Source of the DNA: Alphaproteobacteria bacterium
Lineage (GTDB): Bacteria > Pseudomonadota > Alphaproteobacteria > MPNO01
Direction of reading: 5' to 3'
Length of the DNA stretch: 64,000 bases
Assembly (NCBI GenBank): GCA_965248835.1
Contig: CBDFLJ010000002.1
Location: forward strand, 928,001 to 992,000
The notes under the pieces were generated by a model. That model worked only from the letters and a program-made list of their open reading frames with translations, had not been told where the DNA came from and did no database searches. This document shows positions 2,957-13,197 of this stretch, piece by piece. The stretch's first letter is position 1; every line of letters starts with the position of its first letter. Both the position numbers and the translations under genes were made by a program.

Positions 2957-3877
2957 TTGGGCACGAACCTCGATATCATCATCGTCGGCGGCGGCATCGC
3001 CGGGCTGACGGCGGGGCTGCAGTCGGCGCGGCTCGGGCTGTCCTGTCTGGTGCTTACCGGCGAGATGCCCGGCGGCCATCTGCTGAGCATCGGCCGGATC
3101 GATGGCTATCCGGGATTTTCCGACGGCGTTGCGGGCTACGATTTGTGCCCGGGGATCCAACTCGAGGCCGCGGACTGCGGCGCGGCCTTCGCCGCGGCCT
3201 CGCTCGAGACCTTGGAGGTCGGCGCGAACGGGGTCGTCGTCTCCACCGGACGGGACAGCTATGCCGCCCAGGCTGTGATTCTCGCCACCGGGACGCGATT
3301 CAGGACGCTCGGCGTCCCGGGCGAGGACCGGCTGCGCGGCAAGGGTGTCAGCCAGTGCGCAAGCTGTGATGCGCCGTTGCTGCGCGACCGTGTGGTCGCG
3401 GTCGTCGGCGGCGGCGACTCGGCCCTGCAGGAGGCGCTGACGCTCGCCGAGTTTGCCGAGCGCGTGGTGATCGTTCATCGCGGCGCTGCCCTCGGCGGGC
3501 AGCAGGCCTACCGCGCGCGCATCGCGGCTCACCCGAAGATCGAGGTGCGGCTCGGCACCGCCGTGGAGGAGATTCGCGGCGAGGAGGCGGTCGGCGCCAT
3601 CACACTCACCGATGGCGATCTGGAGGTCGCCGGGGTGTTCATATACATTGGCCTTGAGCCGAATACCGGCCCTCTGCGCGGCCTCGTCGGGCTCGACGAG
3701 GCGGGGCACATCCCGACCGGCGTCTCGATGGCCACCGGTCTCAAGGGGGTTTTCGCGGCCGGGACGGTGCGGGCCGGGGCGGCCGGACGGGCGGCGGCCG
3801 CGGCAGGCGATGGCGCGGCCGCTGCGATTGCTGCCGCGCGGTATCTGAAGAGCGGCGTTTGGGAGGATCTCGAATGA
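2957..3877 (+). CDS. Thioredoxin-reductase-like FAD/NAD(P)H disulfide oxidoreductase
   Basis: GGGIAG, VILATG, GVSQCASCD (CxxC), VVGGGDSALQEA and GVFAAG motifs. Its stop overlaps the next ATG (ATGA). Confidence 0.88.
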   Translation: MGTNLDIIIVGGGIAGLTAGLQSARLGLSCLVLTGEMPGGHLLSIGRIDGYPGFSDGVAGYDLCPGIQLEAADCGAAFAAASLETLEVGANGVVVSTGRDSYAAQAVILATGTRFRTLGVPGEDRLRGKGVSQCASCDAPLLRDRVVAVVGGGDSALQEALTLAEFAERVVIVHRGAALGGQQAYRARIAAHPKIEVRLGTAVEEIRGEEAVGAITLTDGDLEVAGVFIYIGLEPNTGPLRGLVGLDEAGHIPTGVSMATGLKGVFAAGTVRAGAAGRAAAAAGDGAAAAIAAARYLKSGVWEDLE

Positions 3878-5508
3878 GCGAACGGCTTGCGGTTCACGAC
3901 CCGCGCGGCAACCCGCCGAGCGTCACCGGCACCCGGCTCGCCCCCAGGCTGGAGAGCCTCGACGGCAAGGTGATCTACCTGGTCGACTGCCTGTTCGACA
4001 ATTCGGACACCTTCATGCGCGAGCTCAAGGACTGGTTCGGCGGCCACCTGCCGGCTGTCGAGACCCGGATCATCAAGCCGCGCGAGAGCTGGGTCGACGA
4101 TCCCGACATGCGCAATCGGATCGAGAACGACGGCGATGGGGCGATCCTCGGGGTCGGGTTGTGAAGCACCTGTAGCCCGACGGTCGTCGGGCTGGCATTG
4201 GATCTGGAGCGGGCCGGCGTCCCGACGGTTCCGGTCCACACACATGTTTTCGACCGGCTGGCGAAGTCGGTCGCGCTGGCCAACGGCATGCCGACCGCGC
4301 GCCAGGCGTTCGTGCCCCAGCCCGTGGTCGACCGAACGTCGGCCCAGCTCCGGGCCTATATCGAAGGGGCCGATCCGGTTTCCGGGCGCCCGTTCGTGCG
4401 CGAGGTGATCGAGGGGCTGACCCGCCCGCTCGACACGGCCGACCTCAAGGGCGTGTCGTTCGAGCGCAGCACGCCACGGTTGATCGAGCCCGACACCGAG
4501 GACAAGCTGCAGTCCTTGTTCGTCCAGGACCATTGGACGGACAATCTGCCGATCGTCCTGCCGACCGAGGCGCGGGTGGCCGCGATGCTCGAAGGGACCA
4601 GCCATGCCGCCGATGAGGTCGTCGGCACGCTGCGGCCGACCGCCTATCGCGAGGCCTGGGAGTTCACCGTCGAGAAGGCCGCGGTCAACGCGGTCATGGC
4701 CGGTGCCAGGCCGGAATACCTGCCGGTCATCCTGGCGCTGCTCGCCAGCGGCCAGACGGCGCGGTCCTCCAGCACCAACTCGTTCGCGGTCATTTCGGTG
4801 GTCAACGGCCCGATCCGTGCCGCGCTCGGCATGAACGACGGGATCGGCGCGATGGGCCCCTACAACCATGCCAACGCGACCATCGGGCGGGCCTACAATC
4901 TGGCTTCGATCAACCTCCAGGGCGGCTCGGTGCCGGGCGACACCTACATGGGCTCGCTCGGCAACTGGTACAATTATTCCGCCACCTTCGCCGAGGCCGA
5001 GGAACGCAGCCCGTGGGCGCCGTTCCACGTCCAGCAGGGGTTCGCGCCCGGCGACAGCACCGCCAGCGTCTTCTTCGGCGGCTGGTACACCCATGCCGGC
5101 TACGGCCCGCGCGAGACGTGGCAGGAAAATTTCAGACGCTCGCTGGCCGGCTGCGAGCACCATTTCCCGCCGCTGTTCGTCATCGATCCGATCTGCGCGC
5201 GCGGGCTGGTCGATCTCGGTTTCGACACCAAGGAGAAGCTGATCGACTGGCTGTCCGACAACGCCCGGCTGCCGGCCCGCGAGTATTGGGACAACCAGTG
5301 GGTCCAGACACTGGTCCACCCGCTGGCGGTCGCGGGCATCGAGCCTTTCGCAGGCAGGCTCGCCGCGGCTCCGGACGAGGCGATCCGGATTTTCGAGCCG
5401 TCCGACATCCATGTCGTCGTCGCCGGCGGCGAGACCCAGGGCGCCTGGAAAATGATCGCCGGGCGCTACGGCCCCAACGCGACGGTGTCGGTCGACGCCT
5501 GGCGCTGA
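3874..5508 (+). CDS. Probable selenoprotein, UGSC-like family (Sec at codon 97, UxxC motif), about 544 aa
   Basis: ORFs 3859..4164 and 4198..5508 are in the same frame, separated only by TGA 4162-4164. Read-through gives GAILGVGL-U-STCSPTVVGLALDLERAGVPTV. A SECIS-like hairpin follows. Confidence 0.85.
4171..4197 (+). promoter_or_regulatory. Putative bacterial SECIS element
   Basis: Perfect 8-bp stem AGCCCGAC/GTCGGGCT (4174-4181/4186-4193) with apical loop GGTC beginning 18 nt after the TGA; extendable by TGT/GGCA with a bulge. Confidence 0.8.
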
Positions 5509-5554: not shown

Positions 5555-6631
5555 TCATTGCGCGGCTTCGTCCTCGTGCGCGGCCAGGGCGGCGACTTGA
5601 GCTTCGGCCTTATCGGCCATCAGCTTGCGCACGCGGGTCAGCCCGACATCGTGGTCGTAGAGGTGTTCGCGGGAATCGGCGTCCGGATCGATGGATTCCG
5701 CGACCAGCCGGTCCTGCTCCAGCACGTCCCAGTGCCGCGCTTCCAGCCGGTTCCTGTAAAGAAAGCGCCAGACGTCGCGCTGCCAGCCCGAAACCTTTCG
5801 GTGGCGCCAGAAGAAGCAGGCCGAACTTCCCTCGTCGATCGGGGTGATGTGGAAGACGATGCCGAAATTACCGCCCGGCCCGCCGGTGTCGGGGTAAGGG
5901 ATCTCCAGGCAGACGGCCTGGAAGTCGCGGTCGTACCACTCCGACCAGTCGAAGTTGAGGTCGCGCTGGCCCTTCTTCTCGAAGACGAAGCCGGTCGCGG
6001 TCTTGCGCATGCGGAAGGAAGCCTGATCCGCACCTTCGGCCATGGAATGGGAGACCCGGTGCAGGAATGCGCCGTGCATCGGGTCCATGTTGTTGTCGAT
6101 GATGTAGCGGTAGGGGCAGCGCCATTCGGCGTAGCACAGGAAGACGCCATATTCCTCGCTGCTCAGCCTCTCGGGCGGGGTGAACGGCGCGGGGTTCGCA
6201 TGGAGCGCATCGCCGTACCAGGCGAAGATCGCCCCGCGGTGCTCGATCGCCGGGTAGGTGCGGACGGCGCGGCAGCCGATCAGATCGGAGCCGGGCTGGC
6301 CGGGCAGCGCGGCCACAATGCCGTCGCCGGTGATCTCCGCGCCGTGATAGAGGCAGGTCAGCCGGTCGCCGTCATGGCGGGCGATCGACAGCGGCGCGCC
6401 GCGGTGGGGACAGCGGTCGTCCTGAAGATGGACCGCGCCCGCGTCGTCGCGCCACAGCACCAGCTTGCGGTCCCAGCGCCGCAGCGCGACCGGCCGTGCG
6501 CCCACCCGAGCCGAAGGGCAGATGCCGTACCAGCGGTTCCGGAGCCCGGTCGCCAGCAGCGTCCTCGCGTCCTCGCTCGCCCGGTGAAGCGGGTTAGCCG
6601 TCGCCGCCGCCCAGCCGGCGCATCTCCGCAC
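5555..6631 (-). CDS. Rieske non-heme iron oxygenase, alpha subunit
   Basis: GLRNRWYG; CPHRG...CLYHG; NNMDPMHGAFLH; VLEQDR. Start uncertain: in-frame GTG at 6631 with GAGG upstream, or ACG at 6601. The longer 7165 ORF overlaps the upstream gene. Confidence 0.88.
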   Translation of the reverse strand: MRRCAGWAAATANPLHRASEDARTLLATGLRNRWYGICPSARVGARPVALRRWDRKLVLWRDDAGAVHLQDDRCPHRGAPLSIARHDGDRLTCLYHGAEITGDGIVAALPGQPGSDLIGCRAVRTYPAIEHRGAIFAWYGDALHANPAPFTPPERLSSEEYGVFLCYAEWRCPYRYIIDNNMDPMHGAFLHRVSHSMAEGADQASFRMRKTATGFVFEKKGQRDLNFDWSEWYDRDFQAVCLEIPYPDTGGPGGNFGIVFHITPIDEGSSACFFWRHRKVSGWQRDVWRFLYRNRLEARHWDVLEQDRLVAESIDPDADSREHLYDHDVGLTRVRKLMADKAEAQVAALAAHEDEAAQ

Positions 6632-7214
6632 CGAAGCTCGCCTCGGTCCACGGCTTGCCGTCCGGCGCCGCGATGCCGAGCGCGTTGAGCCCGGCGGCGA
6701 TTTCCGCCAGATCCTGGACGCCGCGCCGGAACAGCTCCTCCAGCGCATCGCCCAGCCGGTTCTCGGCCTCGTCCGGCTCTCCGGCACCGGATTGCCGGGG
6801 CTCCAGGGAGAGCCCGTTGTGGGGCAGGCGCGGGTGATCGCCGCCGCCGGCTCGGCTGTTGACCGGCCCGTCGGGGTCGGCCCAGGCCGTGCCGCGGGCC
6901 TTCGCTTCGCGGGCCAGGCGTTCGCGCACGCCGATGAAATCGTAGCTCGGATAGGTCTCGGTGCGGAAAACGCCCCAGGCCGATCGCTCCAGCTCGACGT
7001 TGACCGCCTGCAGCCTGGAGGGCGGCAGGCGTAGGGTGAGGATCTGGCCGACTCCCATGACCACGTTCCACGACACGATCTCGACGCCTTCGGGCGGGAA
7101 GCGCCCCCACCAGTCGCGCTCGTCGAGCTTGGCCTGAAACTCCTCCAGGCGCTGCGACTGGTCATGGCGCAGGAAGACGGTGAGCAGGATCTCCTCGCCC
7201 TTGATATCGTCCAT
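6594..7214 (-). CDS. Two-domain hypothetical protein: N-terminal alpha/beta domain plus C-terminal recombinase-like HTH domain seen next to Rieske oxygenases
   Basis: N-part LLTVFLRHDQS...FPPEGVEIVSW; C-part ENRLGDALEELF..G..DL...AAGLNA.G...PDG.PWT..SF.AEM.RLG. Overlaps the Rieske gene start. Confidence 0.65.
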   Translation of the reverse strand: MDDIKGEEILLTVFLRHDQSQRLEEFQAKLDERDWWGRFPPEGVEIVSWNVVMGVGQILTLRLPPSRLQAVNVELERSAWGVFRTETYPSYDFIGVRERLAREAKARGTAWADPDGPVNSRAGGGDHPRLPHNGLSLEPRQSGAGEPDEAENRLGDALEELFRRGVQDLAEIAAGLNALGIAAPDGKPWTEASFGAEMRRLGGGDG

Positions 7215-7412
7215 CAACGGTCTCCCGATTTCTCGTGCGCCAGCTTCGCACAGTCCGGCGTCTCGAGCAGCGGCCTCGTGTCCAGGCGTCGGCGCACGCC
7301 GCAGAACCGCCGGACCCGGCCATCCTCTTTCATACAGCGGTGAAGTACGCGAAGCGGTCCGGTTTCGCCGTCAAGACCGGCGGCCGGCGCTGTCCACCGA
7401 CCGGGCGGCGGT

Positions 7413-7442
7413 TTGACAAGCCCACCGCAGGGCTTGCATGCT
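7413..7442 (+). promoter_or_regulatory. Candidate sigma70 promoter with a palindromic operator in the spacer
   Basis: TTGACA (7413-7418), 18-nt spacer, CATGCT. Inverted repeat CAAGCCC-n6-GGGCTTG at 7417-7436. Lies 30 nt upstream of the ABC operon start. Confidence 0.45.
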
Positions 7443-7471
7443 CGCTTTCCAATAAAGCAAGGGAGAGGACG

Positions 7472-8551
7472 ATGAGGTTCAGCGGACGACGAGCGCCGGC
7501 TCTTCTGGGCGCCGCGCTGGCGGCGGCGATTGCGGTTCCGGCCGCGGCCGAGACCGTCAAGGTCGGGATGCCGATACCGGTCACGCTCACCGATCTCGGC
7601 TATTACGCGTTCGGCGAGGAACTCGGGTTTTTCAAAGAAGGCGATATCGATCTCAGGATCATCGTCTTCAAGGGCTCGGGCAAGATGGTGCCGCAGGTCG
7701 CGACCAAGAAGCTCGACATCGGCTGGGCTCTGCCCGGTGCGCTGTTCAAGACTTACCAGCCGGGGCGCACCCGGCTGCCGGTGGTCTATTTCTACAACAT
7801 CATGCCGACCTGGACGCTGCAGCTCTCGGTGCTGGCGTCTTCGAACATCAAGACGGTCGCCGACCTCAAGGGCAGGAAAATCGGCATCGGCGCGCTGACA
7901 TGGGGCACGATTCCGATGCTGAAGGCGCGGCTCAAGGACGCCGGGCTCACGGTGGGCGAGAATGTCGAGCTCGCCGCGGTCGGCATCCTGGGCTCCGGGT
8001 TCCTCGCGCTCAAGCGCGGCCGGATCGATGCGCTCGACTACAACAACACCTGGCAGGACCTGCTGGAGCTGTCGGGCACCAAGATCCGGCGCCTGCCGAT
8101 CAAGGAGAAGTTCCATAACCTGTTCACCAACGGGTTCATGGCCCACCGCGAGACGCTGGCTCCCAAGCGCGACATGCTGGTGCGGTTTGCCCGCGGTATG
8201 GCCAAATCCTCGATCGCTTGCCAGGAGAACCCGGCCGCCTGCGTGAAGGCATTCTGGCGCAAGCACCCGAACATGAAGCCCAAGGGCGATGAGGCCAAGA
8301 CGCTGCCGGCCTCGGTCAAGATGGTCAACAACCGGCTGGCGCTGATGAACGTCGGGCCCAAGGACATGGTCGGCAAGATGGGCCACTGGCCGCGCAAGTC
8401 GTTCGAGCACTACGTCAACGCGTATTATGAGAGCGGCTGGATAACGACCCGCGATATCGAGATCGACAAGATGTACACCAACGAGATGATCGCCGACATC
8501 AACGGCTTCGACGAGGGCGACGTCAGGGCGAAGGCGCGCGCGGCGAACTGA
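7472..8551 (+). CDS. ABC transporter substrate-binding protein (NMT1/THI5/SsuA/TauA-like)
   Basis: GGGAGAGG RBS, signal peptide ending AAA-ET, ELGFFKEGDID and IKTVADLKGRKIG motifs. Confidence 0.88.
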   Translation: MRFSGRRAPALLGAALAAAIAVPAAAETVKVGMPIPVTLTDLGYYAFGEELGFFKEGDIDLRIIVFKGSGKMVPQVATKKLDIGWALPGALFKTYQPGRTRLPVVYFYNIMPTWTLQLSVLASSNIKTVADLKGRKIGIGALTWGTIPMLKARLKDAGLTVGENVELAAVGILGSGFLALKRGRIDALDYNNTWQDLLELSGTKIRRLPIKEKFHNLFTNGFMAHRETLAPKRDMLVRFARGMAKSSIACQENPAACVKAFWRKHPNMKPKGDEAKTLPASVKMVNNRLALMNVGPKDMVGKMGHWPRKSFEHYVNAYYESGWITTRDIEIDKMYTNEMIADINGFDEGDVRAKARAAN

Positions 8552-9361
8552 ATGGCAGCGACCGGAACCGGAGTGGCCGCCGCCGCGTCGACCGCGGAGT
8601 CCGCTCCGGTCCTGGCTGCCGAGGGCCTGTCGCTGGTCTATCAGACCCGCCGCGGAACGATCACCGCGCTTGAGGCGCTCGACTTGGCGATCGGCCGGGG
8701 CGAGTTCTTTTCTTTGATCGGGCCGTCGGGTTGCGGCAAATCGAGCCTCCTCAAGGTCGCCGCCGGACTGCTGCCCCAGACCACCGGCACGATCACGCTC
8801 GACGGCATCGCGGTGACCGGGCCGCGGCGCGAGGTGGGCGTGGTCTTCCAGCGCCCGACGCTGCTGCCCTGGAAGACGGTCACCCAAAATGTGCTGCTGC
8901 CGGCCGAGACGCTGCAGCTCGACATGGCTGGCGCCAAGAGCCGTGCGGACGAGCTGCTCAGGCTGGTCGGTCTCGGGGAGTTCGCCGACAACTATCCGAA
9001 CGAGCTTTCCGGCGGTATGCAGCAGCGCGTCGGCATCGCCCGGGCGCTGATCCACGACCCGGCGGTGCTGCTGATGGACGAGCCGTTCGCCGCCCTCGAC
9101 GCCCTGACCCGCGAGCACATGATGATGGAGCTCCAGGACATCTGGCTGTCGACCGGCAAGTCGGTCCTGTTCATCACCCACTCGATCCCCGAGGCGGTGT
9201 TCCTGTCCGACCGGGTCGCGGTGATGTCGCAGCGCCCCGGCCGGATCATCCGCGAGCACGTCGTCGAGATAGCGCGCGCGCGCGATCTGGCGACGATGGT
9301 CGATCCGCAATTCAACCAGACCTGCAACGAGCTTCGCGCCGAGCTCACGGTCGATCTGTAG
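8552..9361 (+). CDS. ABC transporter ATP-binding protein (nitrate/sulfonate type)
   Basis: Walker A GPSGCGKS, signature LSGGMQQR, Walker B LLMDEPF, H-loop FITH. Confidence 0.95.
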   Translation: MAATGTGVAAAASTAESAPVLAAEGLSLVYQTRRGTITALEALDLAIGRGEFFSLIGPSGCGKSSLLKVAAGLLPQTTGTITLDGIAVTGPRREVGVVFQRPTLLPWKTVTQNVLLPAETLQLDMAGAKSRADELLRLVGLGEFADNYPNELSGGMQQRVGIARALIHDPAVLLMDEPFAALDALTREHMMMELQDIWLSTGKSVLFITHSIPEAVFLSDRVAVMSQRPGRIIREHVVEIARARDLATMVDPQFNQTCNELRAELTVDL

Positions 9362-9379
9362 CACGTTCGGGAGGCTGGC

Positions 9380-10168
9380 ATGCCTGACAGGTTCAGGACA
9401 GCGCTTTATCCGCTGATCACGGTCGCGGTCATCGTCGTCGCCTGGGAGCTCGCGATCCGCGAATTCGCGATCGAGGACTATATCCTGCCGCACCCGTGGC
9501 TGGTGGTGACCTCGATCGTCGACGGGTTCCGCCAGGGCGGCTTCATGGCGCATTTCTGGGCGACCGCCGAGGCGACGGTGCTGGGTTATGTCCTGGGCTG
9601 CGGGCTCGCGTTCCTGATCGGCGTCGCCGTGGCCGAATCGGTGACCTTCGACAAGTTCGTCTACCCTTGCGTGGTGGCGTTGCAGTCGATGCCCAAGGTC
9701 GCGCTGGCGCCGCTGATCCTGGTCTGGTTCGGCCACGAGATTGAATCGCGGATCATCATGGTCGGGCTGATCTGCTTCTTCCCGATGTTCGTCAACACCG
9801 TCGTGGGCATCCGCCAGACCGACCCGGAGCTGATCGATCTGTGCAAGGCGTTCTCGGCCTCGCGGCGTTACGTGTTCTTCAACGCCAAGCTGCCTTCGGC
9901 GGCGACCGAGATCTTCGCCGGCCTCCAGATCGGCGTGGTGCTGGCGTTGATCGGCGCGGTGGTGGCCGAGTTCGTCGCCTCCGAGCGCGGGATCGGCCAC
10001 ATGATCGATTCGGCCGCGGTCAGCCTGACGGTCTCCAACATGTTCGCCGGCGTCATCATCCTCGCGGTCATGGGCGTGGTCGGCACTGCGGTGGTGCGCG
10101 CCCTGCAGCGTCGCGTCGTCTTCTGGGAGGGCGGTTCGGCGCGGGTCAACTTGGAGCAGGCCTCATGA
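9380..10168 (+). CDS. ABC transporter permease (nitrate/sulfonate type)
   Basis: Multiple transmembrane segments; PKVALAPL, FFP and GAVVAEF motifs. Confidence 0.92.
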   Translation: MPDRFRTALYPLITVAVIVVAWELAIREFAIEDYILPHPWLVVTSIVDGFRQGGFMAHFWATAEATVLGYVLGCGLAFLIGVAVAESVTFDKFVYPCVVALQSMPKVALAPLILVWFGHEIESRIIMVGLICFFPMFVNTVVGIRQTDPELIDLCKAFSASRRYVFFNAKLPSAATEIFAGLQIGVVLALIGAVVAEFVASERGIGHMIDSAAVSLTVSNMFAGVIILAVMGVVGTAVVRALQRRVVFWEGGSARVNLEQAS

Positions 10169-11592
10169 GCGAGCCCGATCTCTGCTATCTCGGCGGCGCC
10201 GAGGCCGCGCGACGGATCGCCGCCGGCGCGCTGTCCCCGGTGGCGCTGGTCGAGGCGATCCTGGCCCGGATCGATGCCGTGCAGCCGGCGCTGAACCCTT
10301 TCACGATCGTCTGCGCCGAGCAGGCGCGCGAGGCCGCGCACGCGGCCGAGGCGGCGCTGGAGCGCGGCGAAGCCACCGGCCCGCTCCACGGCGTGCCCTA
10401 TACGGCCAAGGACATGATCAATGTCGCCGGCCTGCGGATCACCTTCGGCTCGCCGATGTTCGAGGACAACGTGGCCGACGCCGATACCGTGGTCATCGCG
10501 CGGCTCAGACAGGCCGGCGCGATCCTGATCGGCATTACCAACATGGCCGAGTGCGGCCACAAGGGAACCAACGACAACCCGGTCTGGGGGATGACCCGAA
10601 ACCCGTGGAACCCCGAAACCACCCCCGGCGGCTCGTCCGGCGGGGCTGCGACGGCGCTTGCGACCGGCTGCGGCGCGCTGGCGCTTGGCACCGACCGTGC
10701 CGGGTCGGTCCGGATCCCCGCCGGCGCAACCGGCGTCCTGGGGCTCAAGCCCACGCTTGGCGTCTTCCCCTGTCCGGAGACGCCGGACCTGTTCGACACC
10801 ACGACCGTGATCGGCCCGATGGCGCGGTCGGTCGAGGACATCGCGCTGCTGATGAGCGTCTGCGGCGGACCCGACTCGCGCGATCCCTGGTCGCACGGCG
10901 CGGCCAGGAAGGACTACGCCGCCGCGCCGCGCGGCGACATGAAAGGCGTGCGCATCGCCTGGGCGCCGCTGGTCGGCAACGCGGCCATCGACCACGAGAC
11001 GCGGGCGATCTGCGAGGAAGCGGTCGAGGCCTTCCGCCGGCTCGGCGCCGAGGTCCGCGAGATCGACATCGACCTGTCGGCGGCGGTGGACATTCTCTAC
11101 GCCCTGGTCGGGGCGCTGGCACACGCGGCCTACGGCGAGAAGATGGACAGGTTCGGCGAGCGCATCGATCCCTCGCTGCGGCAGGGCATCGCGATGGGCG
11201 GTGCGCTGAGCGCGACGGACCTGGAAAAGGCGCTGTTCGGCCGAGCCGAGCTGTTCCGCAGGATCGAGGCGGTGCTGGCCGAAAACGACCTGCTGGTCAC
11301 GCCCACCCTGACCCGGCCGGCGATCGCCGCCGACCACTTCGCGTTCGACCCGGTGGTGATCAACGGACGACCGCACCGCTCGCCGCGCCATGATTGGTAT
11401 CCCTACACCCATCCGTTCAACCACACCGGACACCCGGCATTGGCTCTGCCGGCGGGCTGGACCGAAGACGGCATGCCGGTGGGGCTGCAGATCGTCGGCC
11501 CCTGGCATTGCGAAGACCGGCTGATCGCCGCCGGCGCCGAGCTCGAAGCCGCGCGGCCCTGGTCGGGGCGCCGTCCGCCCCTGCCGTCCTGA
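10165..11592 (+). CDS. Amidase-signature family amidase
   Basis: GPLHGVPYTAKD, TPGGSSGG and GTDRAGSVRIPA supply the Lys-cisSer-Ser triad. ATGA overlap with the permease. Confidence 0.92.
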   Translation: MSEPDLCYLGGAEAARRIAAGALSPVALVEAILARIDAVQPALNPFTIVCAEQAREAAHAAEAALERGEATGPLHGVPYTAKDMINVAGLRITFGSPMFEDNVADADTVVIARLRQAGAILIGITNMAECGHKGTNDNPVWGMTRNPWNPETTPGGSSGGAATALATGCGALALGTDRAGSVRIPAGATGVLGLKPTLGVFPCPETPDLFDTTTVIGPMARSVEDIALLMSVCGGPDSRDPWSHGAARKDYAAAPRGDMKGVRIAWAPLVGNAAIDHETRAICEEAVEAFRRLGAEVREIDIDLSAAVDILYALVGALAHAAYGEKMDRFGERIDPSLRQGIAMGGALSATDLEKALFGRAELFRRIEAVLAENDLLVTPTLTRPAIAADHFAFDPVVINGRPHRSPRHDWYPYTHPFNHTGHPALALPAGWTEDGMPVGLQIVGPWHCEDRLIAAGAELEAARPWSGRRPPLPS

Positions 11593-11595
11593 CTC

Positions 11596-13197
11596 TCAGG
11601 CGGCCTTGATCATGTCGGAGGCCTTCTCGGCGATCATGATCGTCGGCGCGTTGGTGTTGCCGCCGGTGATCGTCGGCATCACCGAGGCATCGACGACGCG
11701 CAGGCCTTCGATGCCGCGCACCCGCAGCTCCGGGTCGACCACCGAGTCCTCGTCCGCACCCATGCGGCAGGTGCCGATCGGGTGGAAGATGGTGTGCGCG
11801 TTCTCGCGCACCCAGTCCGACAGCACCTCGCCGTCGTCGATTTCGGGCCCGGGCATCCTCTCGGTCCCGCGATAGCGATCGAACGCCGGCGCATACATCA
11901 GCCGGCGCGCCTCCTGGAAGCCGCGCACCAGGGTGTCGAGGTCCTCGGACTCGGCGAAGAAGCACGGGTCGATCCGCGGCCGGTCCACCGGATCGGCCGA
12001 TTTCAGGGTTATCTCGCCGCGGCTCTTGGGGCGCAGCAGGGTCGCGCTGACCGAGAATCCGTGGCCCCAGCCGAACAACCTTCCATCCTTGCCCCGCTGG
12101 CCCGGCACGAAGCCGATCTGGATGTCGGGCCGCGGCGCGGTGGGGTCGGTCCGCACAAAACCGCCGCTTTCGATCAGGTTGGAGGTCCAGAAGCCGCGCC
12201 GGGAGACCGCGTAGCGAAGCACGCTCCAGGCCATCCACGGCATCGCGCGCGCGGACAGCCCATAGGGCACCAGGCTCGGGCTTTCGAACTCGACCCGCGC
12301 GGAGATGTGGTCCTGAAGGTTCTTGCCGACCGCGGGCAGCGCATGGGCAAGCGGGATCCCCAGCTCCGACAGCGCAGCGCCGTCGCCGATGCCGGACAGC
12401 ATCATGAGTTGAGGGGAGGCGATGGCGCCGCCTGACAGGATGACCTCCCGCCGGGCGCCGATCGATTCACCCTGCGCGCCGTTGGCGAGTGCGACGCCGA
12501 CGGCGCGGCGGCCTTCGAGCATGACGCGGGCGACCTGGCGACCGGTCTTGACCTCCAGGTTCGGCCGGCCCTTCGCCGGGGTCAGGAACGCGGCGGCGGC
12601 CGAGCACCGCCGGCCGTCCCGCTGTGTGACCTGGAAGACGCCGAACCCTTCCTGGTCGGCGCCGTTGAAGTCCTCATTGCGGCTGTATTGCAGGCTTTCG
12701 GCGGCTTCCACCAACGTCTCGCCCAGCGGGTTCGGACGGTCGACATAGGTCACGTTGAGCGGGCCGCCCTGGCCGTGCAACGCGCTGGCGCCATAAGTCT
12801 CGTTGTGCTCGGACTTCAGGAAATAGGGAAGCACGTCATCCCAGCCCCAGCCGGACAGCCCGGCCGCCTCCCATTCGTCATAGTCGCCGCGGTGGCCCCG
12901 GATATAGACCATGCCGTTGATCGAGCTCGACCCGCCAAGCGAGCGCCCGCGCGGGATATAGACCGCGGCCCCGTTCATCTGCTTCTGCGGCTCGGTCTCG
13001 AAGCGCCAGTTGAGCGTCTTGTGGCGCATCAGGGCGAACAGTGCGGCCGGAATATGGATCAGCGGGCTACGGTCCGGCGGGCCGGCCTCGATCAGGCAGA
13101 CGCTGGTTGCCGGGTCCTCGCTCAGCCGGCTGGCCAGCACGCATCCGGCCGAGCCGCCGCCCACGATGACGTAATCGAAATGTTCGCCGTTGCCCAT
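11596..13197 (-). CDS. GMC oxidoreductase (choline-dehydrogenase-like)
   Basis: DYVIVGGGSAG, GGSSSINGMVYIRG, VGKNLQDH, FHPIGTCRMG and GNTNAP motifs. Confidence 0.93.
   Translation of the reverse strand: MGNGEHFDYVIVGGGSAGCVLASRLSEDPATSVCLIEAGPPDRSPLIHIPAALFALMRHKTLNWRFETEPQKQMNGAAVYIPRGRSLGGSSSINGMVYIRGHRGDYDEWEAAGLSGWGWDDVLPYFLKSEHNETYGASALHGQGGPLNVTYVDRPNPLGETLVEAAESLQYSRNEDFNGADQEGFGVFQVTQRDGRRCSAAAAFLTPAKGRPNLEVKTGRQVARVMLEGRRAVGVALANGAQGESIGARREVILSGGAIASPQLMMLSGIGDGAALSELGIPLAHALPAVGKNLQDHISARVEFESPSLVPYGLSARAMPWMAWSVLRYAVSRRGFWTSNLIESGGFVRTDPTAPRPDIQIGFVPGQRGKDGRLFGWGHGFSVSATLLRPKSRGEITLKSADPVDRPRIDPCFFAESEDLDTLVRGFQEARRLMYAPAFDRYRGTERMPGPEIDDGEVLSDWVRENAHTIFHPIGTCRMGADEDSVVDPELRVRGIEGLRVVDASVMPTITGGNTNAPTIMIAEKASDMIKAA

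Follow-up and report, generated by a model that had tools for sequence, protein, structure and literature searches.

An in-frame TGA within a likely UGSC/Unknown_1 fusion selenoprotein gene, next to a thioredoxin-reductase-like gene, in an alphaproteobacterial genome

The 64,000-nucleotide stretch of DNA analysed here (the window; positions 928,001 to 992,000 of contig CBDFLJ010000002.1, alphaproteobacterial assembly GCA_965248835.1) contains two open reading frames (ORFs), 3859..4164 (101 aa) and 4198..5508 (436 aa), which mechanical ORF calling reports as separate although they lie in the same frame. Are these two genes, or one gene read through a TGA, and what would its product do? An earlier note on this DNA held that only TGA 4162-64 parts the two ORFs, and sequence and translation bear this out: the frame opens on the + strand at ATG 3874, closes with the stop 5506-5508 and has the TGA at 4162-4164, translated here as U, as its only internal stop. 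We suggest that the locus very probably encodes one 544-residue selenoprotein, in which a UGSC-family domain is joined to the domain named Unknown_1 and the selenocysteine (Sec) insertion sequence (SECIS) lies within the coding sequence (CDS). This is the best explanation of the locus as a whole, and comparison with relatives makes Sec the almost certain meaning of codon 97. The features of the gene are as follows.

3862..3867, + strand: GGAGGA, seen in the sequence 6 nt before ATG 3874, a putative Shine-Dalgarno-like element
3874..5508, + strand: the selenoprotein gene in full, 544 codons and a stop, codon 97 being Sec; tblastn matches residues 1-544 in 41 loci
3892..4359, + strand: UGSC-family domain (residues 7-162), Pfam PF24696, 86 bits, profile positions 2-158
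4162..4164, + strand: TGA read as selenocysteine (U97), in the context G-V-G-L-U-S-T-C-S-P
4171..4173, + strand: TGT, Cys100, the predicted resolving partner of U-x-x-C; Cys is kept in 41/41 loci
4174..4193, + strand: SECIS-like hairpin, stem 4174-4181 / 4186-4193, apical loop GGUC 4182-4185
4450..5505, + strand: the partner domain Unknown_1 (residues 193-544, boundary approximate), with no Pfam or NCBIfam family

The first step of the argument concerns the domain that the TGA interrupts. On the read-through protein Pfam PF24696 scores 86 bits against a cut-off of 25 and covers profile positions 2-158 of 172; in the genome search the window gene scores 82.1 bits with 1 TGA inside the match. 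When the two parts are searched one by one, the part upstream of the TGA matches positions 2-91 and the part downstream positions 96-158, hence the TGA lies inside one domain, at the Sec position of the UGSC family. The read-through motif G-L-U-S-T-C proposed earlier stands in the translation as part of G-V-G-L-U-S-T-C-S-P, with U97 at the motif position and C100 three residues on, giving the UxxC arrangement; the eponymous tetrapeptide U-G-S-C is replaced by U-S-T-C. The C-terminal part matches no family, and the claim of a 544-aa Sec protein with a small domain fused to a large uncharacterised one is supported.

The second step is the behaviour of this codon in relatives. A word-indexed search gave 7091 relatives among 8000 scored candidates, two close ones of which (P0070, P0087) bear the NCBI name ‘UGSC family (seleno)protein’, and an exhaustive search of cluster representatives gave 4508 proteins at E <= 0.001. 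On genome contigs 42 loci encode a relative and 41 of them cover the Sec site; TGA stands at the aligned codon in all 41, in the motif G-V/H-G-L/H-U-S-T/S-C, down to 58% protein identity. The two sides of the TGA are conserved alike: mean identity to the window protein is 72% over residues 1-96 and 73% over the 100 residues that follow the TGA. The earlier note had proposed looking for TGA or Cys at codon 97, and both are found: in alignment A1, made of the window protein and 25 full-length non-Sec forms from the cluster-representative search, Cys occupies the residue-97 column in 8/25, as C-x-x-C in six and as the first Cys only in two. The closest of these non-Sec forms (P0123 and P0124, 54% and 49% identity) both carry C-S-T-C. 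An even draw from the same class, 201 genomes counting that of the window, gave relatives at E <= 1e-20 in 23 of them, often with more than one copy per genome; fused forms with one in-frame TGA are seen in close orthologs (G025, G089; 67-69% identity) and in more distant ones (G003, G050, G059, G194).

Three of the related loci deviate in other ways. In L039 and L044 the TGA codon is kept and the frame breaks downstream of the site. The 42nd locus, L062, lacks the N-terminal part: the start of its TrxR-like (thioredoxin-reductase-like) gene runs straight into selenoprotein residue ~158, and a frameshift follows later. The L062 region (3300-5200) is a damaged or misassembled copy.

The third step is the hairpin that follows the TGA. 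Its stem of 8 perfect base pairs, inside the coding sequence, and its GG-led loop are real, as the earlier note had it, but the position needs correction: the 18th nucleotide downstream of the TGA is the first of the loop, and the stem already begins 9 nt past the TGA. The bacterial SECIS model given in the legend of Fig. 2 of PMC13188914 asks for a loop of 3-9 nt, a stem of 4-16 bp, a spacing of 16-37 nt, a G at the first or second loop position (pattern G[G|U]) and a minimum free energy (MFE) of at most -7.5 kcal/mol. The window hairpin agrees with this model on every count: its loop has 4 nt and begins with GG, its stem has 8 bp, the distance from UGA to loop is 17 nt (4165-4181) and the MFE is -17.1 kcal/mol. 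This energy, for the fold of 4162-4200 (39 nt), corresponds to z = -2.35, and 6/200 shuffles fold equally well; the fold alone is just moderately unusual for G+C-rich DNA.

What places the hairpin beyond chance is its conservation and covariation in relatives. In an alignment of 42 sequences from the TGA to +44, 39 of them distinct, stem cells are paired in 92.3% across the distinct sequences, compared with 24-53% once the 3' partners have been shifted by 1-3 columns, and the covariation score was reached by 0/500 shuffles. Pair 4179/4188 (18-27) is G-C in 23 sequences, C-G in 11, U-A in 3 and A-U in 2, with none unpaired, and it joins synonymous third-codon positions of Pro (CCN) and Val (GTN); in two sequences, U-A replaces C-G at pair 4176/4191. 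In the loop GGUC the first three bases are invariant in 42/42 sequences, the first G even though it occupies the third, four-fold degenerate position of a Thr (or Ala) codon. Exceptions are an A-C stem mismatch in L040, L053, L054, L060 and L061, arising from a Val-to-Ala change, and a rearranged stem in L042, the most distant locus. Thus the hairpin, whose conservation had been named as a check, is both conserved and covarying.

The decoding machinery, another check named, is present in the genome. On contig C1 the genes selA (1178871-1180211, 559 bits), selB (1180244-1182127, 444 bits) and tRNA-Sec (1184331-1184422, 74.7 bits; tRNA-SeC with anticodon TCA according to ARAGORN) are clustered at C1:1178871-1184422, and selD lies at C1:494681-495598 (309 bits). 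Each of the four scores above its curated cut-off. A second match to the tRNA-Sec model, at G000:C2:114413-114497 (-), reaches 47.1 bits at a gathering score of 47 and is probably another long-arm tRNA.

What kind of selenoprotein would this be? UGSC-containing proteins form one of the major UxxC selenoprotein families, for which PMC2398784 counts 255 selenoproteins, next to 21 Cys homologs, in the Global Ocean Sampling (GOS) data, and the family is still listed without function in the reviews of 2022 and 2026 in the parts that treat it (PMC9312934, PMC13188914). Among the papers that literature searches listed for UGSC, no title or abstract opening pointed to work on the function or structure of the family. 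The window protein is like the family, as described by PF24696, NF041046 and the relevant part of PMC2398784, in having Sec at the family's U position, Cys three residues on and a SECIS directly downstream. It differs from the canonical form in its motif (U-S-T-C against U-G-S-C) and its size (544 against ~177 residues, the latter from a copy in the same genome).

Fusions of this kind are not new. Zhang and Gladyshev (2008) already reported UGSC/Unknown_1 fusions from Global Ocean Sampling in the text and Fig. S1A of PMC2398784, in the same order as in the window, UGSC domain then Unknown_1; those are read fragments, whereas the gene in the window is complete and stands in a genome among its neighbours. 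Residues ~193-544 gave no family match in the Pfam and NCBIfam searches. By-eye comparison with Fig. S1A of that paper finds the Unknown_1 signature AVNxVMAGxxPEYxPV...VNGP at residues 268-313: the window block AVNAVMAGARPEYLPV...VVNGPIR matches the alignment shown there, and the block AVNGVMAGCRPEYMP...NGP of the figure is the same domain. The Unknown_1 domain is common to all the 4508 library proteins found at E <= 0.001, and Unknown_1 is the usual genomic partner of UGSC proteins. As far as the text and figure of PMC2398784 go, the window protein is a U-S-T-C subgroup member of a known family whose fusion architecture and partner linkage are already on record.

Some relatives of 709-1226 aa (among P0199, P0216, P0218, P0246 and P0251) hold two matched stretches of the partner domain, and P0251 combines the UGSC domain with copper amine oxidase N-terminal domains. 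A weak search for longer fused forms of the C-terminal domain gave 4 proteins, and no thioredoxin or TrxR Pfam domain in any of them.

AlphaFold2, run on the whole protein with a 65-sequence alignment, gave pLDDT 96.0 and pTM 0.94. In the model the N-terminal domain has five beta-alpha units, with U97 between strand 89-95 and helix 100-113, and it is thus predicted to be a five-unit beta-alpha doubly wound fold. A thioredoxin fold has been suggested for UGSC in the part of PMC2398784 that deals with the family. In the wide VIA-align search with the full model only the N-terminal domain was matched: the best rows are flavodoxin-like domains (receiver, B12-binding) at Z 10.5-8.2, and no thioredoxin or Grd/Prd chain stands among the best 50 rows. 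Of the earlier wording ‘thioredoxin-type’, the part that stands is the UxxC motif, and in the model the domain finds its best matches among flavodoxin-like folds.

The C-terminal domain alone is modelled with pLDDT 95.6. Its best VIA-align match is Z 5.5 over 75 residues, to an OmpA-like subdomain, and 0/48,161 chains reach Z >= 8. Foldseek with the full model against the Protein Data Bank (PDB) gave nothing at E <= 0.001; at the top were class I fumarate hydratase, RecJ and others, with TM <= 0.2. With the C-terminal domain alone, the best Foldseek hit, class I fumarate hydratase (E 3.6e-3), was considered as a relative and rejected, with TM 0.18, a root-mean-square deviation of 17 A and no clear match. 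The profile of alignment A3 against solved structures met no PDB chain below E 0.5, and in the ESM Atlas all 30 feature hits of the C-terminal domain are clusters without a Pfam family.

Directly upstream of the selenoprotein gene lies a candidate source of electrons.

2957..3877, + strand: thioredoxin-reductase-like flavoprotein (306 aa, C-A-S-C), putative start TTG 2957; Pyr_redox_2, TIGR01292

The gene scores 118 bits with Pfam Pyr_redox_2, and 264.6 bits with NCBIfam TIGR01292, below the equivalog cut-off of 343.45. It shares with low-molecular-weight thioredoxin reductase (TIGR01292) the Pyr_redox_2 architecture and the C-A-S-C-D motif. Its stop TGA 3875-3877 overlaps the ATG of the selenoprotein (ATGA). 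In 20/41 related loci, which are labelled Alpha-, Beta- and Gammaproteobacteria and Planctomycetales, an ortholog (44-79% identity) stands immediately upstream in the same orientation. This linkage suggests an electron flow from NAD(P)H to the flavoprotein, then to U-x-x-C and to a substrate.

The same genome also carries a second, split UGSC system outside the window, at G000:C2:857829-859427 on the - strand (loci L064 and L065). Its order is a short-chain dehydrogenase/reductase (SDR), then a 350-aa standalone paralog of the C-terminal domain with 38% identity to window residues 212-403, then a canonical UGSC selenoprotein of ~177 aa with an in-frame TGA in the motif G-V-G-D-U-G-S-C. Here the partner precedes the UGSC protein, the reverse of the domain order in the window fusion.

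We propose the following mechanism. SelB and tRNA-Sec would decode UGA 4162-4164 with the aid of the SECIS hairpin 4174-4193. The TrxR-like flavoprotein (CASC), presumably translationally coupled to the selenoprotein, would take electrons from NAD(P)H and reduce a U97-C100 selenenylsulfide, so that the U97-C100 pair would cycle between selenol/thiol and selenenylsulfide. In the reduced form the pair may reduce or reductively cleave a substrate held on the partner domain, where the conserved polar residues D223, E267, R339, N364 and E374 are candidates for binding it. The proposed acceptor would differ from that of the thioredoxin system in being a selenoprotein domain of modelled flavodoxin-like fold instead of thioredoxin. 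We suggest this relay from TrxR through UGSC to substrate because of the ATGA overlap with the CASC TrxR-like gene, the upstream position of that gene in 20/41 loci and the split form in the same genome, and we put its chances at a little short of even. More tentative is the wider proposal that UGSC, its orphan partner and the TrxR-like protein together form an undescribed NAD(P)H-driven selenoenzyme, with a catalytic fold that has no solved relative and a small metabolite as substrate.

Several observations weigh against this picture. An adjacent TrxR-like gene is absent in 21/41 loci: in 20 of them the fetched flanks hold no such gene, and in L037 it lies downstream. In relatives labelled Defluviicoccus that have no TrxR-like neighbour (L024, L027, L028, L029, L030), DUF1989 genes (PF09347) flank the selenoprotein gene instead. 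The partner domain shows no recognisable catalytic fold in its model, and nothing points to a particular substrate. The conserved Cys of Unknown_1 (MAGC, as shown in PMC2398784) is Ala (A278) in the window protein; the residue-278 column of A1 holds Cys in 11/25 homologs and Ala in 13/25, and Ala stands there too in five close relatives (71-83% identical) within alignment A3. Neither motif Cys is present in 17/25 of the full-length non-Sec fused homologs, therefore the N-terminal domain is not always redox-active. NCBIfam NF041046 (UGSC family (seleno)protein) gives 61.2 bits, below its equivalog cut-off of 125, therefore the protein is not a canonical short UGSC protein; judged by sequence, it belongs to a divergent, fused UGSC subgroup. 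The proposed insertion of Sec at UGA 4162-4164 rests on comparative evidence.

As observations in their own right, many fused proteins (the 17/25 of A1) thus have a UGSC-like domain incapable of redox activity in the same way, and in L024 DUF1989 genes stand on both sides of the selenoprotein gene (3365-3949 and 5670-6302).

Around the two genes, at 977-2927 and 5555-13197, the window holds an SDR, two Rieske oxygenases (one VanA_C), an amidase and a GMC oxidoreductase of the choline-dehydrogenase subfamily, with a NitT/TauT-type ABC transporter at 7235-10168; the whole looks like a catabolic island. Queries with the Rieske gene, the amidase and ORF 7214 matched 0 related loci, with the Rieske/VanA neighbour 1 and with the SDR 4/41; this set of queries did not extend to the GMC oxidoreductase or to the transporter ORFs at 7235-10168.

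These neighbours lend some colour to another account, in which Sec is inserted and the U-x-x-C centre is not driven by TrxR: it would act as a nucleophile (forming a selenoether or selenoester, as in protein B, GrdB or PrdB, of glycine/sarcosine/betaine reductase and D-proline reductase) or as a metal/chalcogen site, and be re-reduced by general thioredoxin. GrdB and PrdB are selenoproteins that work with a larger substrate-binding partner and take electrons from the thioredoxin system. PrdB itself carries a UxxC Sec motif, according to Table 2 of PMC2398784. About half of the related loci have no dedicated TrxR-like neighbour, and the Rieske, GMC oxidoreductase, amidase and NitT/TauT ABC genes suggest catabolism of small amines or amides. 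However, these neighbours are scarcely conserved in related loci, apart from the TrxR-like gene and the SDR (4/41), and a search of the window's genome with the GRDB model PF07355 gave no match at E <= 0.001; the 4 matches that this model gave in 301 genomes of the phylum are weak, partial and all in other genomes. A relation to GrdB/PrdB is thus not detectable there by the sequence profile, and the partner domain has no clear relative among solved structures. We consider this account rather unlikely.

Far less probable is that the TGA is a true stop, with a fragment of 96 residues and, from a new start at TTG 4198, a protein of 436 residues as the products. It agrees with ORF calling by table 11, and most of the best 120 relatives are stored as pieces of 406-438 aa, corresponding to the part after the TGA. 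However, a stop here would cut a single Pfam domain in the middle, and the 33 nt from there to TTG 4198 code for a conserved stretch, S-T-C-S-P-T-V-V-G-L-A. All 41 of the 41 loci have TGA as this codon, whereas 11 of the 35 readable terminal stops in related loci are TAA or TAG (TGA 24, TAG 6, TAA 5). Full-length Cys-containing homologs also exist, and the SECIS covaries. The signs which the earlier note had named as telling against the gene (a non-Cys residue in homologs or their consistent occurrence as two proteins, a genome lacking Sec machinery, or an unconserved hairpin) were all looked for, and none of them overturns the reading as a selenoprotein. That the gene is a pseudogene, in which a Cys codon (TGT/TGC) of a once Cys-type enzyme mutated to TGA, is negligible in our view: TGA is indeed one step from TGT/TGC, Cys-type homologs exist and three related loci appear damaged (L039, L044, L062), but the same TGA recurs in 41 loci down to 58% protein identity, both sides of it are conserved at the protein level and the window gene has no other stops.

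The reading of one UGSC/Unknown_1 selenoprotein has a direct consequence for annotation. Ordinary gene callers split this Sec gene in two, and the best 120 relatives in the database are mostly stored as truncated pieces of 406-438 aa; the proper form is a single selenoprotein CDS with a translation exception at 4162-4164, instead of two ORFs. With fusion and partner linkage already reported, the gain is confirmation and detail rather than discovery. The locus lends itself to tests, being compact and made up of a TrxR-like gene coupled in translation to a UGSC-partner fusion, and a genome with both the fused and the split form allows their direct comparison. In aquatic metagenomes the UGSC family ranks with the most abundant families of selenoproteins, judging from the 255 GOS sequences in Table 2 of PMC2398784. 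If the tentative proposal of an NAD(P)H-driven selenoenzyme were true, it would at last provide a function for one of the most abundant environmental selenoprotein families.

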